DNA of 64,000 nucleotides from an uncultured virus (IMG/VR IMGVR_UViG_3300031813_000014) (taxonomy: Duplodnaviria > Heunggongvirae > Uroviricota > Caudoviricetes). Within the stretch, counting starts at the first letter, position 1. The number at the start of each line of letters is the position of its first letter. The stretch lies in IMG/VR virus record IMGVR_UViG_3300031813_000014; one strand, written 5' to 3'. The notes below the pieces were generated by a model. It ran no database searches, was not told the origin of the DNA, and worked only from the letters and a program-made list of their open reading frames with translations. The position numbers and the translations under genes are program-made. Below are positions 25,227 to 47,640 of the stretch, piece after piece.

Positions 25227-25473
25227 TTTTCTCCTTCAGCTTGGATTCAATTGCTTGATAAAGTTGATACGAATTCCCCCAAGGAAAAACTCCACACTTT
25301 ACAAGTTCCATTTTTGTCAATCCTACCCATGTGCGTTTTTGTTTGTTGTATTCAAGGATTGCTCTAGCAAACATTACAGGAAAGTCAGCCGTGCCATTCG
25401 CTTCAACCAGCCCCTCTGCTTTGCCACTCATGTGCAAATAAATGTTGTGTATTTCTTCGTTAGTCATCAGCAA
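25216..25473 (-). CDS. Hypothetical protein
   Basis: 85 aa. WVGLT...AIESKLKEKNG tail. Confidence 0.6.
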   Translation of the reverse strand: MLMTNEEIHNIYLHMSGKAEGLVEANGTADFPVMFARAILEYNKQKRTWVGLTKMELVKCGVFPWGNSYQLYQAIESKLKEKNGY

Positions 25474-27272
25474 TCTCCATAGCTATTTCCCGAACCGGAT
25501 TCACAGTTGAGCGGTAACTCCGAAGCCCAGTTGGGGCGCAGGCGCATACACAATTCAACATATTCTTTAGCAGTCTCAACTTCCTGCTCCGGGGCGATAC
25601 AAGCAATCGCATCGTGCACAGTCATGACGACTTTGTATTTCTTAGCGATCATTAGCATCTGCTCGCCAATCACAATACGAGCTAACGCCTGACATACGTT
25701 CTCAATGACTTTCCCACCATAGATACGTGTCGCTATCATCTGCCGACCCCGCTTGGTGTCGTAGACCAATTCACTTTTATCTTCGTTCTGAACCACACGC
25801 AGGTTTGGGTACTTGATGTAAAGTCCGTTGGGTAACTTGACACCCTTTTTACCCTCTACGTCCAGTATCCCAAGTTTTGTGTGCTTATCATTCATGATGG
25901 CTTTTAAGGCTAAAGCCCCTTCTTTCCATAACTCAACAATCTTAGGGTACGTCTCTCGATATGTCGTGATAATCCTTTTCGATTCAGCCTCCTCAATCTC
26001 CACGCCAAACGTTTTAAGTTGCGCTTTAAATTTAATTGCCCCCATGCCGTACCCCGCACCGAGAATTGTCGTTTTACCAACGAACCTTTCGTCTTTCGTG
26101 ATTTCTGCTTCTCCCTTAGAGTAGATAGCAGATGCCATGATCTTGTATACATCTTGTCCATTTTCAAATGCCTCGACTAAATCGTTTTGTTGAGCTAACC
26201 ATGCCAAAGTACGAGCTTCAATTTGAGATGAATCAGAATCAATCACTACGTAACCATGTGGAGCTAAGATAGCACCCTTAAGAAGTGATGTTCTTGGCAA
26301 GTTCTGAAGGTTAATCTTATCGTCGCCACCCCAACGCCCTGTGTGAGCTGCATAATAACGCAACATGACTGGTAACGTACCTCGATTCGCAATATCCAAA
26401 AACCTTTTTGTTCTTGTTTCTTCTATCGTAGACTTAGCGCCCAATCTGGCTGCCACAACCGCTTGCACAAATTGAGATGAGTGTTCAAGTAATGCTTTAA
26501 ATTCCTCGTCGGTCTTGGCGAATGCGTAAGTTTCTTTGCCAGTCGTTTTGCTAGTTTTGGTTGGGGGCACGACACCGAAAGATTTAAGTATTTCGGCAAA
26601 CTTATCGTTGCTCATCAACTCATCTTCGTTGTATTGAGCAATAGTATGGCGTCTAGCGTTTTGAACTGTGATGTAATAATCTGTGAGGAATAATTTATCC
26701 AACAAGAGCGCAGGCTCGGTAAACATCCGTATGGTTAAGTCGATTAGGTTATGTTCGAGCTTTGGCAACTGACCCTGCATCAATAGGAACAACTCCCACG
26801 TGAGCTTTACATCGTTCTTGCAGTACTCACCATAGGTTGCTAGATGTTGCGGGGTGAAATTAGCACGTCGGTATCCTTTCGCATCTTCAACCTCTGTGCC
26901 TTTGACGCCAACGCCATAATGCTCGGCTAATGTTTTAAGACTGCCTCCCACCTCTGTGCCGATGAGCGCCCGCCCCATACTGAGAGTGCAAGCCCACTTC
27001 TTAGGTTTAATCCCGAATCTCCAGTTTAAAATCGCCCCGTCGAACTGAGCGTTGTGAGCTATGACTACGGAGTTATCCCAATCGTATTGGGCAAGGAACT
27101 GGTGCAACTCGTTGAAAGATCCAGAGAACCACGTTGGCGCCCCATCGTTTACGGCTACGGCTACGCCAATAACCTCAAAGAGTTCATCTCTGATGTACTC
27201 CTCGGTCGTGAGCTTAGTCAAACTAAACTCAGACGAGTAGTATGTTTCAAAGTCTATGGTTAAAAAATTCAT
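25467..27272 (-). CDS. DNA polymerase I (family A) with 3'-5' exonuclease domain
   Basis: IDFET, AHNAQFD, YCKND (Exo I-III), HTGRW, DSSQIEAR (A), KTTILGAGYG (B), VHD (C). Confidence 0.92.
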   Translation of the reverse strand: MNFLTIDFETYYSSEFSLTKLTTEEYIRDELFEVIGVAVAVNDGAPTWFSGSFNELHQFLAQYDWDNSVVIAHNAQFDGAILNWRFGIKPKKWACTLSMGRALIGTEVGGSLKTLAEHYGVGVKGTEVEDAKGYRRANFTPQHLATYGEYCKNDVKLTWELFLLMQGQLPKLEHNLIDLTIRMFTEPALLLDKLFLTDYYITVQNARRHTIAQYNEDELMSNDKFAEILKSFGVVPPTKTSKTTGKETYAFAKTDEEFKALLEHSSQFVQAVVAARLGAKSTIEETRTKRFLDIANRGTLPVMLRYYAAHTGRWGGDDKINLQNLPRTSLLKGAILAPHGYVVIDSDSSQIEARTLAWLAQQNDLVEAFENGQDVYKIMASAIYSKGEAEITKDERFVGKTTILGAGYGMGAIKFKAQLKTFGVEIEEAESKRIITTYRETYPKIVELWKEGALALKAIMNDKHTKLGILDVEGKKGVKLPNGLYIKYPNLRVVQNEDKSELVYDTKRGRQMIATRIYGGKVIENVCQALARIVIGEQMLMIAKKYKVVMTVHDAIACIAPEQEVETAKEYVELCMRLRPNWASELPLNCESGSGNSYGDC

Positions 27273-27784
27273 TTTTTTCTTTTCTTTGGGATCAACTTAG
27301 TAAGTTGCTTGGCGTAGTCTTCGAGCTTGATACCCATCTTCTTGGCTACATGCACTTGAGCGGGGTTTAGGCTTATTGAACTAACAGGTTCCTCTTCGTG
27401 ATGTTGCAGGTCTAGGCGTTGCCCATATACCGCTCTTGGATCTGTCCAATGTCCAGCAGGTTGAAGAAGACCTTTTTGCACCATGCTTCTTAAAGCCATC
27501 TTTTCTTCTTCTCTAGATACATCCTCTTTAAATATGTCGGTCATGACGGTTTCATGCCATTTTTTTCGAACAAGCTCTTTGGCAGATTCCGTGAGTAACG
27601 CTTTCTCGGCATCATTCAGAAACCAAAACAACCTAGTAGGTTGACCTGATACAAACTCCTCTATATCTATTAAGGTATGTTTAAATTTACCAGTATAAAA
27701 ATCATCGGGGTTGGACTCCATGCGGTTAACTAGCGCTTGTACGCTAGGCATGATCTCATTTGAAAGCGTTTGTTCTTTTTGCAT
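27269..27784 (-). CDS. Hypothetical protein with scaffold-like C-terminal motif
   Basis: 171 aa, GAGGA RBS. N-half paralogous to 27756-28160. C-terminus resembles that of the 44397-45365 scaffold. Confidence 0.65.
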   Translation of the reverse strand: MQKEQTLSNEIMPSVQALVNRMESNPDDFYTGKFKHTLIDIEEFVSGQPTRLFWFLNDAEKALLTESAKELVRKKWHETVMTDIFKEDVSREEEKMALRSMVQKGLLQPAGHWTDPRAVYGQRLDLQHHEEEPVSSISLNPAQVHVAKKMGIKLEDYAKQLTKLIPKKRKK

Positions 27785-28160
27785 TGTGTAGTTCCTCTAA
27801 TGTTTTTGCCATTTCTTCAGTAACGCTAGTATTACCTAGCATCAAGTTATTAGCCGTATGCCAGCCTGTTGCACTACGATCCTCTTTAAATATGTGTGGG
27901 TGGGATGACATAGGCAAATGCAAATCATTTTGTGCATCGGTCTTGAGTATGGTCTTCATCACTTTGGTTTCAAACTCTTTGCGACGCACTGCCTTTAGCG
28001 CAGTATGTATAGCCGCTTTTTCTGGCTCAGTCATCACATCTCTGAACGACTCGCTATAAATAAACGACCATTCGCTTTCTTTCTTAGGATCAAAGAACTC
28101 CTCGGGGTTCGTATTCATTCTGCTCACTAACGCTTCTACACCTGCTGATATTTCACTCAT
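27756..28160 (-). CDS. Hypothetical protein
   Basis: 134 aa. GVEALVSRMNTNPEEF. Confidence 0.65.
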   Translation of the reverse strand: MSEISAGVEALVSRMNTNPEEFFDPKKESEWSFIYSESFRDVMTEPEKAAIHTALKAVRRKEFETKVMKTILKTDAQNDLHLPMSSHPHIFKEDRSATGWHTANNLMLGNTSVTEEMAKTLEELHNAKRTNAFK

Positions 28161-28392
28161 TGTTAATTCCTTTTAAAAGTTTCATAATCCCTTGTGCTTC
28201 TTCTTTTCTTAACCCTCTGGCTAGGGTTGTACTTATTCTTCTACGATCCTCATAATCCCATCGGTATATCGAGTATTTGCCGTATCTCGACCTCATGTGG
28301 TACTCGGTGGGTAAATGTGATTTGTAGACCTCTTCAAAAATTTTGGTCAATGCGTCAAGCGTACCTTCTTTAAATTCTTCAATTGGTGACAT
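28153..28392 (-). CDS. Hypothetical protein
   Basis: 79 aa, coupled to neighbours. Confidence 0.6.
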   Translation of the reverse strand: MSPIEEFKEGTLDALTKIFEEVYKSHLPTEYHMRSRYGKYSIYRWDYEDRRRISTTLARGLRKEEAQGIMKLLKGINNE

Positions 28393-28792: not shown

Positions 28793-29317
28793 TTATGTTG
28801 ATGCTATTGCACGATCAATATACCATCGAGCTTTCTTTAAGTCTTCTACTCGGTTGCCCTTGTGGTCTGCACGGCTTATGTATTTCACCGCATTGCCAAG
28901 GTTGTAGTCCAGCTTCTTCGCTTCGATAAAGTCAATCGTTTCAATACCGCCAACTTTATAGTGCGATGGGTGATTGACCATATCACTTGGCTCATGAACC
29001 ACGGGTACAGTCTGAGGTACACCCTTCACACCCTCACTTGTTTCTACAAGCACACCCACAGGTGGTTGCCATTCTTTAGCAATCTCTGTCGGCACAATAG
29101 AATGTGTATGAGTGATGAGCTTGTTCAACTCAGCGAAAGACTTTACCGACTTGGGTGTTTCGACTGGCTTAAACAGCTTCTTTGCTTTGTACATAACTTG
29201 ATATACAAAATCAGAAGTTTCGCCCAACTCTTTAGCCACTTCCGCTAAGGTCATAGTGGGGTGACCCGCTACAAATTTACGCACGATACCTGATCTAGAA
29301 TTAGCTTGTAATCCCAT
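28793..29317 (-). CDS. DUF3310 (T7 gp1.7-like nucleotide kinase) domain protein with N-terminal HTH-like region
   Basis: DMVNHPSHY..GGIETIDFI...GNAVKYISR...KG..EDLKKARWY. Probable start MGLQ at 29317. Confidence 0.8.
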   Translation of the reverse strand: MGLQANSRSGIVRKFVAGHPTMTLAEVAKELGETSDFVYQVMYKAKKLFKPVETPKSVKSFAELNKLITHTHSIVPTEIAKEWQPPVGVLVETSEGVKGVPQTVPVVHEPSDMVNHPSHYKVGGIETIDFIEAKKLDYNLGNAVKYISRADHKGNRVEDLKKARWYIDRAIAST

Positions 29318-29501
29318 TTTCTCTCTCCTTTTGGTTGTTAACATAGTTAGTAAGAATTTCTCTCATTTTGGCTTGCTTGGTAAACGGGTGATGCTCAGAA
29401 AAATAATCCATTATCTCTTTGCTCAACCGAATACTTGTACAAGTGAGAGCGGGCTTCTTACCTGCGCCCCTACCCTTACGTCTTAGTTGTTCTGACATCA
29501 A
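29301..29501 (-). CDS. Small ribbon-helix-helix-like (BrnA-like) DNA-binding protein
   Basis: GRGAGKKP..TSIRLSKEIMDYF...MREIL. Confidence 0.55.
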   Translation of the reverse strand: MMSEQLRRKGRGAGKKPALTCTSIRLSKEIMDYFSEHHPFTKQAKMREILTNYVNNQKERENGITS

Positions 29502-43805: not shown

Positions 43806-43996
43806 GAGAACGTGCTAATTTCTCTGCCCTGATGCACATAGAACGCCAAAAACAGGTGGACTTTGTAGCGAGTGGCAGATGCGTTGATTTCGCCGAATAT
43901 CGGCACATCTGTGGGATTATCCGGGGTCTAGAACTCGCAGATCAAATTGTAGACGACCTCGTGCAAAAAATGGAGAAAGACGATGACGAGTTTTGA
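43802..43996 (+). CDS. Hypothetical protein
   Basis: 64 aa. DFAEYRHICGIIRGL, between portal and GroES. Confidence 0.65.
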   Translation: MRERANFSALMHIERQKQVDFVASGRCVDFAEYRHICGIIRGLELADQIVDDLVQKMEKDDDEF

Positions 43997-44387
43997 CGTA
44001 TCCGCTGTGGACTTATCTGGGATCCTTAACAAGGGCACCGAGGATAAAGCCAAACAGTTGCCAGACCCTAAGCGATTTCATTTGCTCTGCGTGGTTCCCG
44101 AAGCTATTGAGGAATATGCGGACTCTGGGATTGTAAAGTCTAGTCAAACAATGCACTATGAAGAAGTACTGACCCCAGTGTTATTCGTAGTCAAAATGGG
44201 CCCCGACGCTTATAAAGATACGACTCGCTTTCCTAGCGGTCCGTCTTGTAAAGAAGGGGATTTTGTTATCACCAGACCTAACTCAGGCACCCGCCTGAAA
44301 ATTCACGGTCGTGAATTCAGAATCATCAACGATGATTCTGTTGAGGCCGTTGTAGAAGATCCACGCGGAATTTCCCGCGCTGCTTAA
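43983..44387 (+). CDS. groES: Co-chaperonin GroES (Cpn10)-like protein
   Basis: SGIV mobile loop, VVKMGPDAY...CKEGDFV...G.EFRIINDDSVEAVV. Confidence 0.85.
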   Translation: MTSFDVSAVDLSGILNKGTEDKAKQLPDPKRFHLLCVVPEAIEEYADSGIVKSSQTMHYEEVLTPVLFVVKMGPDAYKDTTRFPSGPSCKEGDFVITRPNSGTRLKIHGREFRIINDDSVEAVVEDPRGISRAA

Positions 44388-44396
44388 GGAAAAACC

Positions 44397-45365
44397 ATGG
44401 CAACATCATTTGAAGAGTTTAAGTTCCCCGACGACGAAGTACCAAAGGTTACTGCAAAGGAACCCGAGGATAAGTTTGAAGTAGAGATTGAAGACGATAC
44501 ACCTCCCGAAGATCGCGGTCGCAAGCCTATGGCTAAACCTCCCGAGGATCCAACGGAAGATGAACTGTCTAGCTACGACGAAAAAGTTCAAGCCAGAATC
44601 AAGAAGTTTACTCGTGGTTATCACGACGAACGTAGAGCTAAAGAAGAAGCGCTTCGTGAACGCCAAGCCGCTGAAGCCTATGCACGTCAAGTGCTGGAGG
44701 AAAACAAACGTCTACAGCAACAGTTGGCTAACGGTAGCAAAGAGTACATTGAGACTTTTAAACAAGCCGCAGAAGCTCAGCTTGCCGCAGCCAAAGACAA
44801 ATTTACCAAAGCATATGAATCAGGTGATGCACAAGCGCAAGCTGAAGCTCAAGCCATGATTGCAGCGGCAACAGTAAAAGCTAGTCGTGTACAGGATATG
44901 AGACCTGTGCAGGTCGAGGAACGTGAATTTAAACCAGCGCCTCAACAACCCGAAGCACCACGCTTGCATCCGCGCACTCAACAGTGGGTAGACAACAACA
45001 GCGATTGGTACGGGGTGGATGAAGAGATGACTGCATCTGCCGTGGGGCTTGACAAGAAACTCCAGCGGGAGTATGGTCAAGACTTCATTGGTACTGAAAA
45101 GTACTTTCAGCTCATTGATAAAACAATGCGCAAAAGATTTCCTGAGCACTTTGAAGACGCTCAGAGCCGTTACTCCGACGAAGAGGATGATGAACCACCT
45201 CAACGCCGTGCCTCAAAACCCGCGTCTGTTGTAGCTCCCGCTACACGCAGTACGCCGCCGAGTCGTATTAGATTGAAAGCCTCAGAAGCCGAGATTGCTC
45301 GAAGACTTGGAGTGCCCATTGAACAATACGCAAAACAGGTTGCTTTACTTAGAAAAGGTGCTTAA
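44397..45365 (+). CDS. Capsid scaffolding protein
   Basis: Acidic N-terminus, long coiled coil, C-terminal L...EAEIARRLGVPIEQYAKQ, upstream of the capsid genes. Confidence 0.7.
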   Translation: MATSFEEFKFPDDEVPKVTAKEPEDKFEVEIEDDTPPEDRGRKPMAKPPEDPTEDELSSYDEKVQARIKKFTRGYHDERRAKEEALRERQAAEAYARQVLEENKRLQQQLANGSKEYIETFKQAAEAQLAAAKDKFTKAYESGDAQAQAEAQAMIAAATVKASRVQDMRPVQVEEREFKPAPQQPEAPRLHPRTQQWVDNNSDWYGVDEEMTASAVGLDKKLQREYGQDFIGTEKYFQLIDKTMRKRFPEHFEDAQSRYSDEEDDEPPQRRASKPASVVAPATRSTPPSRIRLKASEAEIARRLGVPIEQYAKQVALLRKGA

Positions 45366-45367
45366 TC

Positions 45368-45826
45368 ATGTCAGATAAACAAAACCGCTTAGACCGTGAA
45401 CTCGATGACCGAAAAGCTGTTGCTTTTCGCCCAGAAATGTGGAAGCCCCCGGAGCTTCTGCCCGAACCTAAACCAAGGGACGGCTGGAAACATCGTTGGA
45501 TTCGTATAAGTATGTTAGGTGGAGCTGACGCGACTAACATTTCATCTAGGTTACGCGAGGGATACGAGCCTGTTAAGGCGGAAGATTATCCCGAGTTAAT
45601 GATGCACGCCACTCAAGAAGGCCGATTTAAAGGCAATATTGAAGTAGGTGGTTTGTTGTTATGCCGTATTCCAGCAGAGTTTGAGAAGCAGCGTGATGAA
45701 TATTACGCCAAGCAGAATCAAGCACAAATGGAGTCCGTGGATAACAGTTTTATGCGCCAGAATGATCCTCGTATGCCTTTGTTTGCAGAGCGCAGATCGA
45801 ACGTAAGTTTTGGCAAAGGCTCTTAA
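45368..45826 (+). CDS. Conserved head-module hypothetical protein
   Basis: WKPP.LLP.P...RWIR...REGYEPV...GGLLLCRIP. Confidence 0.7.
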   Translation: MSDKQNRLDRELDDRKAVAFRPEMWKPPELLPEPKPRDGWKHRWIRISMLGGADATNISSRLREGYEPVKAEDYPELMMHATQEGRFKGNIEVGGLLLCRIPAEFEKQRDEYYAKQNQAQMESVDNSFMRQNDPRMPLFAERRSNVSFGKGS

Positions 45827-46737: not shown

Positions 46738-47640
46738 ATGGCTATTTCACGCGCACAACTATTGAAAGAACTGCTCCCAGGCTTGAACGCATTGTTCGGT
46801 TTAGAGTATGCACGTTACGGCGAAGAGCACAAAGAGATCTACGAAACAGAAACCTCTGAGCGTTCTTTTGAAGAAGAAACGAAACTGTCAGGTTTCTCTG
46901 CAGCACCTGTTAAAAACGAGGGTTCAGCCATCGCTTATGACAATGCTCAGGAAGCATGGACAACTCGCTATAACCACGAAACCATCGCCCTTGGTTTCTC
47001 GATCACTGAAGAAGCGATCGAAGATAACTTGTATGACTCTTTGTCTGCTCGTTATACCAAAGGCTTGGCTCGCGCCATGGCATACACCAAGCAAGTTAAA
47101 GCTGCTGCCGTTTTGAACAACGGCTTCAACGCAGCCTACACTGGCGGTGACGGACAGTCTTTGTTCTCTACTGCTCATCCCTTGGTGAATGGTGGTAACA
47201 ACGCCAACACTCCTTCTACTCCTGCTGATTTGAACGAGACTTCTCTTGAGAATGCCGTTATTCAGATCGCTGCATGGACAGATGAGCGTGGCCTCTTGAT
47301 CGCCGCTAAACCCAAGAAGTTGGTTGTTCCTCCTGCACTCATGTTCGTTGCAACTCGTTTGCTCGACACTGAATTGCGTGTTGGTACAAACAACAACGAC
47401 ATCAATGCAATTAAAAACAATGGTGCCGTTCCTGAAGGTTATACAGTTAACCACTTCTTGACCACACCTAATGCTTGGTTCTTGACCACAGACGTGCCAA
47501 ACGGACTTAAACACTTCGTTCGTACACCTCTGCAAAACAGCATGGATGGTGACTTTGACACTGGTAACGTACGTTACAAGTCTCGTGAGCGTTACAGCTT
47601 CGGCTGGTCAGATCCATTGGGAATCTACGGTTCCTATTGA
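46738..47640 (+). CDS. Major capsid protein
   Basis: 300 aa. MAISRAQLLKELLPGLNALFG...KLVVPPAL...RERYSFGWSD. Strong RBS, followed by a terminator. Confidence 0.9.
   Translation: MAISRAQLLKELLPGLNALFGLEYARYGEEHKEIYETETSERSFEEETKLSGFSAAPVKNEGSAIAYDNAQEAWTTRYNHETIALGFSITEEAIEDNLYDSLSARYTKGLARAMAYTKQVKAAAVLNNGFNAAYTGGDGQSLFSTAHPLVNGGNNANTPSTPADLNETSLENAVIQIAAWTDERGLLIAAKPKKLVVPPALMFVATRLLDTELRVGTNNNDINAIKNNGAVPEGYTVNHFLTTPNAWFLTTDVPNGLKHFVRTPLQNSMDGDFDTGNVRYKSRERYSFGWSDPLGIYGSY

Follow-up and report, generated by a model that had tools for sequence, protein, structure and literature searches.

Why would a small protein encoded beside a phage DNA polymerase gene end in a sequence that resembles the C-terminus of the head scaffolding protein of the same phage? 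The stretch of DNA analysed here, 64,000 nucleotides long and referred to as the window, belongs to an uncultured virus (IMG/VR IMGVR_UViG_3300031813_000014) whose genome is a complete 67,171-base record with terminal repeats and with its own portal, scaffold-like gene, and capsid. The gene that raises the question, ORF A (27269..27784, minus strand), encodes a 171-residue protein in which a helical carrier N-domain is followed by a tail that bears the mimic. The ORF A stop overlaps with the start of the gene for a Family A DNA polymerase (25467..27272, minus strand), and 4 IMG/VR contigs carry it at 100% identity.

The likeness was first pointed out in an earlier first-pass annotation of this DNA, which aligned the end of ORF A with that of a 322-residue protein encoded at 44397..45365 (plus strand). 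Both reading frames and both peptides that it quoted are where it had placed them, and only its description of the peptides as protein ends has to be amended, in that ORF A continues for 7 residues beyond the quoted peptide and the scaffold for 4. Its consensus fits without gaps to residues 133-164 of ORF A (27293..27388, minus strand) and to residues 287-318 of the scaffold (45255..45350, plus strand). Over these segments, 12 of 32 residues are identical and 21 of 32 similar (BLASTP E 4e-6), and none of 5000 shuffled versions of ORF A reached the alignment score. When 1063 frames were searched with the scaffold tail, ORF A was the best match other than the scaffold itself (E 1.4e-4), and a profile built from 30 scaffold tails finds no place in the whole 67,171-base genome besides the scaffold and ORF A (E 8.5e-9). 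To judge from these alignments, the tail of ORF A is a true copy of the tail of the likely scaffold.

The age of the copy can be read from its codons. Base identity between the two tails is 14, 25, and 7 of 32 at the first, second, and third codon positions, and hence the likeness has been held at the protein level and does not reflect a recent DNA duplication. A recent duplication from the phage's own scaffold gene was considered separately and rejected, with 38 of 75 bases identical and silent sites 0.95 diverged. Ranked by likeness, the phage's own scaffold comes 19 of 58 for the ORF A tail and 34 of 58 for that of the related locus L010, and the scaffold-tail copies appear not to be tuned to self, the ORF A tail being nearer to the scaffolds of other phages than to its own. 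In a strain with 44 differences over 3001 bases, one of those listed falls in ORF A, at position 27293, a third codon position, and we read it as silent.

The source of the motif is likely a scaffolding protein, a role that we infer from its gene position between the portal and the HK97-fold coat, its shape, and a terminal motif that is conserved across 60 distinct tails; the helix-loop-helix of this conserved C-terminus is predicted on the ORF A copy rather than on the scaffold itself. The best PHROG is one of unknown function, no solved relative was found, and none of the libraries searched gives the protein a scaffold name; the Mu-like I protein matches 2 of 32 scaffold tails weakly (E 0.068). 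Among 50,697 phage records, the 322-residue protein matches 7, including HTVC023P, HTVC027P, and DSL-LC04, and the gene order GroES, scaffold-like gene, two small genes, capsid is identical in HTVC023P. From these matches and this gene order the phage is HTVC023P-like and not P22-like. Most of the runs that match it best are metagenomes from lakes and fresh water; no RNA run is among those listed, which tells nothing about expression. A gene for a phage GroES-like co-chaperonin (43983..44387), part of the core set of HTVC023P-type phages, immediately precedes the scaffold-like gene. In G005 (L255, L259-L262), the scaffold gene matches in several frames with stops, which are probably sequencing errors or a broken gene, and it was omitted from our counts.

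Might the tail of ORF A be a convergent DNA-binding helix-turn-helix, unrelated to any scaffold? This objection had been foreseen in the first-pass annotation, and a profile search finds no match between the ORF A tail and the helix-turn-helix families, so that it is not a generic DNA-binding motif of this kind. Some aligned tails do resemble such families, 8 of 32 matching HTH_Crp_2 and 8 matching HTH_3, weakly in each case (best E 2.7e-4), and the A-K-K-L-G turn at their centre is a cap with which helices commonly begin or end, designed repeat proteins included. However, when run over five bacterial assemblies (19.6 Mb), the scaffold-tail profile yields 4 strong sites and one weak site (E 0.068, as against 8.5e-9 for ORF A). 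From their position beside capsid loci we read the 4 strong sites as phage scaffold genes, and a loose first look at the candidates revealed no regulators among these assemblies. Convergence would also leave the capsid pieces found in the same neighbourhood, described below, unexplained, and we consider it very improbable.

The predicted structure of ORF A consists of a helical N-domain, a low-confidence linker, and a confidently modelled two-helix tail, with helices at residues 141-150 and 154-164 (pLDDT ~91). Of the roles suggested earlier, that of a mimic is the likely one. The carrier N-domain (approximately residues 9-89; 27518..27760, minus strand) is a helical bundle for which no clear fold match emerged: a fold search of the PDB gave 0 matches at E<=0.001 and one of BFVD gave 0, a wide PDB search gave a best Z of 5.7, which is in the ordinary range for helical bundles, and the ESM Atlas returned unnamed clusters only (best score 0.86). 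P0054, a repeat protein from a eukaryote, was set aside as a chance match. Between the domain and the scaffold-tail copy, residues 113-121 (27422..27448, minus strand) form a W-x-DP-x-x-x-YG motif that resembles the last residues of the capsid protein (290-298), such that ORF A bears two pieces, a scaffold tail and a capsid C-terminal piece.

ORF A has a tandem paralog, ORF B (27756..28160, minus strand, 134 aa), which, as had been noted before, has the N-domain in common (31% identity over 83 aa, E 6e-8) and a different tail that lacks the scaffold motif. In 59 of 64 loci, the last N-domain paralog is found no more than 100 bases from the polymerase start. Some relatives (L064:9163-9585, L159:3973-4404, and L124:1074-1493) have an additional, divergent N-domain paralog between the usual two, and at its end the capsid C-terminal motif takes the form Y-x-DPR-x-x-Y. 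The nearest distinct relative of ORF A, P0002, is 86% identical across 72% of ORF A and carries an unrelated tail. Its first residues are of the ORF B type and are followed by an ORF A-type domain, which suggests that P0002 may be the product of recombination between tandem paralogs.

How far do such tails vary? We assembled 160 distinct tails from database proteins and from 167 related loci, the latter being best-hit sets of capped size that lean towards close kin. The scaffold motif is present in 20 of the 160, as compared with 1 match in 1015 shuffled sequences. On a quick N-domain tree, the scaffold label needs 9 changes, at least 6 of them forced by well-supported branches. L015 and L095 have the same sequence as far as the W-I-D-P codons, then diverge in their tails and become alike again at the polymerase start. 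L005, L009, and L015 carry a near-identical scaffold cassette on different carriers; the W-x-DP-x-x-x-YG motif is the swap point of the tails in relatives of ORF A. As far as these comparisons of sequence go, the tails are swapped as DNA cassettes on a common helical N-domain. No tail swap among close strains was seen in the contigs of four runs.

Other tail types were noted in passing. The motif L-x-I-G-x-x-x-L-T-E-x-D recurs in 18 of 160 tails (L058:9362-9781, L079:9986-10432, L145:102-476, and others); no source for it was found among the proteins of the window, and it is perhaps present in degenerate form at the end of 27756-28160. The tail types of L105:911-1345, L038:10336-10833, and L071:3714-4172 end in short amphipathic-looking helices, which presumably recall the membrane-targeting sequences of FtsA or MinD.

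What, then, is the scaffold tail doing on this carrier? In the first-pass annotation it was taken for a coat-binding tag gained by one protein, which may be loaded into procapsids; the N-domain would then be delivered in heads to the next host. Scaffold-tail fusions serve to load P22 particles, and the motif and its basic residues are intact in the ORF A tail; in addition, the C-terminus of the P22 scaffold binds coat (PMC9965877). A tag acquired by a single protein is nevertheless not what the wider pattern supports: the tail belongs to a set of cassettes that replace one another, most of them copied from the capsid protein. The motif is found in only 20 of 160 tails, and it also sits mid-protein in a DUF3310 family that is unrelated to the N-domain family. 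Because the 86%-identical relative lacks the tail, and because the phage's own scaffold ranks only 19 of 58 for it, a fixed loading tag is unlikely, and delivery of the N-domain in heads seems to us quite improbable.

The second donor of cassettes is the major capsid protein (46738..47640, plus strand), whose model shows the HK97 fold. When profiles of the window's proteins (>=70 aa) were run against the 160 tails at E<0.01, the scaffold matched 20 tails and the capsid 7, and no other protein matched any; reversed tails gave 0 matches for scaffold and 0 for capsid. We also ran sliding 20-residue capsid profiles over 203 variable regions, for which shuffles gave at most 0.4 matches per window. 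Capsid window 51-70 matches 30 of 160 tails and capsid window 281-300 matches 9 of 160, ORF A among them. Capsid window 1-20 matches the start of a neighbouring protein family of 79 residues, where the N-arm is copied near-verbatim in 4 of 10 distinct N-termini, with E values down to 1e-9 among 4797 ORFs. In the capsid model, the copied pieces correspond to the helix of the N-arm (residues 1-30), the tip of the E-loop (46-75), and the final strands at the C-terminus (271-300). The E-loop copies (n=22) retain the capsid-invariant residues F53, A56, K59, E61, and G62 in 82-100% of cases, a figure that is partly circular in that the capsid profile chose them. Apparent copies of capsid residues 90-127 and 210-228 failed the sliding-window test and were rejected. 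A search for short capsid homologs gave, among the 120 of 3156 matches listed, partial capsids of ~150 aa, which were probably cut at contig ends and are uninformative. Of 23 members scanned, 2 bear tail-fibre-like pieces, with E values of 4.5e-4 and 1.6e-3.

Two further genes upstream of ORF A and ORF B belong to families that carry such pieces. In the window's own 79-residue ORF (28153..28392, minus strand), the N-terminus fails the N-arm test and looks degenerate, and its family displays a graded decay of the N-arm copy. The next carrier (28793..29344, minus strand) combines a helix-turn-helix-like region with a DUF3310 protein. The linkers of its relatives hold the scaffold tail in 11 of 33 cases and, in 5 of 33, a proline-rich piece from the N-terminus of ORF 45368 (45368..45826, plus strand), the conserved gene that follows the scaffold; the scaffold piece comes first and the piece of the next gene second, matching genome order. 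The DUF3310 protein of the window is without the scaffold tail, and its residues 92-95 read W-Q-P-P, perhaps a worn ORF 45368 piece. An N-domain gene and a DUF3310 gene occur together in 73 distinct loci, of which 41 contain one piece or more, 22 the scaffold motif, and 32 no copy above threshold. With ORF B as query, the fragment-bearing early genes found no match among 50,697 phage records.

An alternative that requires no mimicry is that illegitimate recombination puts bits of late genes into the tolerant ends of accessory genes, where they are kept for folding, stability, or oligomerisation. The tails are indeed very variable, some members of the N-domain family end shortly past the N-domain (98-100 aa), the N-arm copy of the 79-residue family decays by degrees, and the DUF3310 linker pieces keep their genome order. 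However, hardly any sources occur other than the scaffold, the capsid, and ORF 45368: profiles of the portal (48 homologs), GroES, and ORF 45844 give no copies at E<0.05, although for most tail proteins the profiles were built on one to four sequences and are a weak test, and capsid windows 81-115, although equally conserved, were not copied in the sliding-window test. The same pieces moreover recur over lineages and carriers. We hold this explanation to be unlikely.

The copies also bear marks of selection. Among 256 carrier genes searched at E<0.05, the capsid gives 12 matches, the scaffold 26, and ORF 45368 8, and all 46 are in the coding frame, with 0 matches in the other five frames. Close pairs of scaffold copies, pre-selected at >=60% amino-acid identity, differ mostly by silent change, as in one pair with changes at 7 of 17.8 silent sites versus 2 of 57.2 replacement sites; the exception is the pair L064/L145, in which silent and replacement change are equal (0.28 each). 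Judged by these substitution counts, the scaffold copies are under purifying selection. Thus, the pattern is real, selected, and wider than was first described.

If the copies are selected, on what do they act? One candidate is the assembling head. The pieces may bind coat or scaffold competitively, as CpmB does, and so delay the phage's own assembly or poison the heads of co-infecting relatives. In P22 and 80alpha, the C-terminal helices of the scaffold bind the N-arm of the coat (PMC9965877 and PMC5644958), and both halves of this contact have been copied into early genes here. The retention of invariant residues by the E-loop copies, with the circularity mentioned, is in keeping with such binding, the non-self likeness of the scaffold tails would suit the targeting of rivals, and the phage group is abundant, with an estimated ~14,000 stored stretches that match its capsid patterns. 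Yet the 80 nearest capsids of IMG/VR show 87-95% identity, and a poison could therefore hardly spare the phage that makes it. In addition, the tail-fibre-like pieces are not head contacts, and many relatives are without any copy. We regard modulation of assembly as rather unlikely.

The speed of the shuffling, the mixture of sources, and the early location of these genes are best accommodated by a decoy aimed at the host, and we tentatively propose, while judging it somewhat short of probable, that ORF A and its kin are shuffled virion-peptide decoys against host sensors. Small early-operon proteins would display short, swappable copies of virion arms on a helical carrier domain, in the case of ORF A the tail of the likely scaffold together with the capsid C-terminal motif. 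Because the genes sit in the early/replication operon, the carriers would be made ahead of the head proteins. The copies may bind whatever binds the real virion arms. Their partner would be a host sensor, chaperone, or protease that recognises linear motifs of the capsid or scaffold, and a copy would engage it without setting it off; as recognition by the host changed, phages would recombine the cassettes anew. Since relatives swap the tail for short capsid copies, a decoy role is likelier than a simple capsid-loading tag.

In support of decoys, the comparisons above show copies on three neighbouring early gene families, held in reading frame, under apparent purifying selection (scaffold copies), and swapped as cassettes. 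The non-self likeness of the copies also counts for a decoy, as do the tail-fibre-like pieces, which a role in head assembly would not need. Hosts are known to sense capsid proteins (PMC13581612), and the TAC chaperone sensor reads short aromatic patterns (10.1101/2024.02.24.581848). Several points weigh against a decoy. Avs7, 8, and 10 recognise the folded core of the capsid through extensive contacts with its A-domain (PMC13581612) and not the arms copied here, and a copied trigger could fire a sensor instead of blocking it. The 32 of 73 loci without a copy above threshold and the equal silent and replacement change of L064/L145, in a set of pairs pre-selected by identity, also speak against it, and the copied capsid pieces appear in the model to be arm-like and of the assembly-contact kind, which fits modulation of assembly equally well. 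No sensor of scaffolding proteins is named in the literature searched, and no description of virion-fragment decoys or of shuffled virion-fragment genes was found in it (mostly freely accessible texts).

A bolder form of the decoy proposal, which we consider possible but doubtful, is that next to the DNA polymerase gene of an abundant freshwater phage group lies a combinatorial decoy locus, in which three carriers display recombining capsid, scaffold, and tail-fibre cassettes and thereby blind host pattern-recognition receptors. If this were true, the copied segments would chart which linear motifs of the virion are read by bacterial sensors, an undescribed scaffold sensor among them. Decoys would amount to a phage counter-defence made from the phage's own triggers, with the capsid N-arm, E-loop tip, and C-terminus and the scaffold tail pointing to host targets. 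Were the pieces assembly competitors instead, satellite-style scaffold mimicry would be in use by lytic phages against their kin or themselves. On either reading, the natural tail swaps on near-identical carriers are ready-made test pairs.

Where does this locus stand among known systems? CapRel is reportedly a capsid-sensing host defence. Together with Avs7/8/10 (PMC13581612) and TAC HigBAC (10.1101/2024.02.24.581848), it exemplifies the receptors at which a decoy made of virion peptides would be aimed. These are however host sensors and not phage decoys, and the Avs proteins read folded cores; the portions consulted of the capsid-sensing defence literature describe no phage decoy built of virion fragments. 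With regard to the phage itself, PMC9599517 assigns HTVC023P-type phages by a PolA similarity of at least 45% to cultured phages and contains no mention of scaffolds. The present phage has the same capsid-region gene order and possesses PolA, helicase, and GroES, but is a freshwater relative.

Its likely scaffold resembles P22 gp8 (PMC9965877) in being long and probably flexible, in ending with a two-helix motif that has basic residues, and in having its gene ahead of the coat gene. It differs in that it has no sequence match to solved scaffolds and in that two genes lie between scaffold and coat. The closest parallel in form to ORF A is CpmB of SaPI1, which is encoded by a satellite, targets a helper phage, competes for coat, and shrinks capsids (PMC5644958). 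Like CpmB, ORF A is a small non-scaffold protein with a copy of a scaffold C-terminal motif on an unrelated helical N-domain. In contrast to CpmB, ORF A sits in a complete phage genome with its own scaffold, portal, and capsid rather than in a satellite, and its tail is one of several swappable cassettes, most of which copy the capsid. Hence, by its sequence, ORF A resembles CpmB in form and is not a member of that system. What this locus adds is a cassette structure: tails are exchanged at defined points, the pieces come from several donor proteins, and three carriers lie next to one another.
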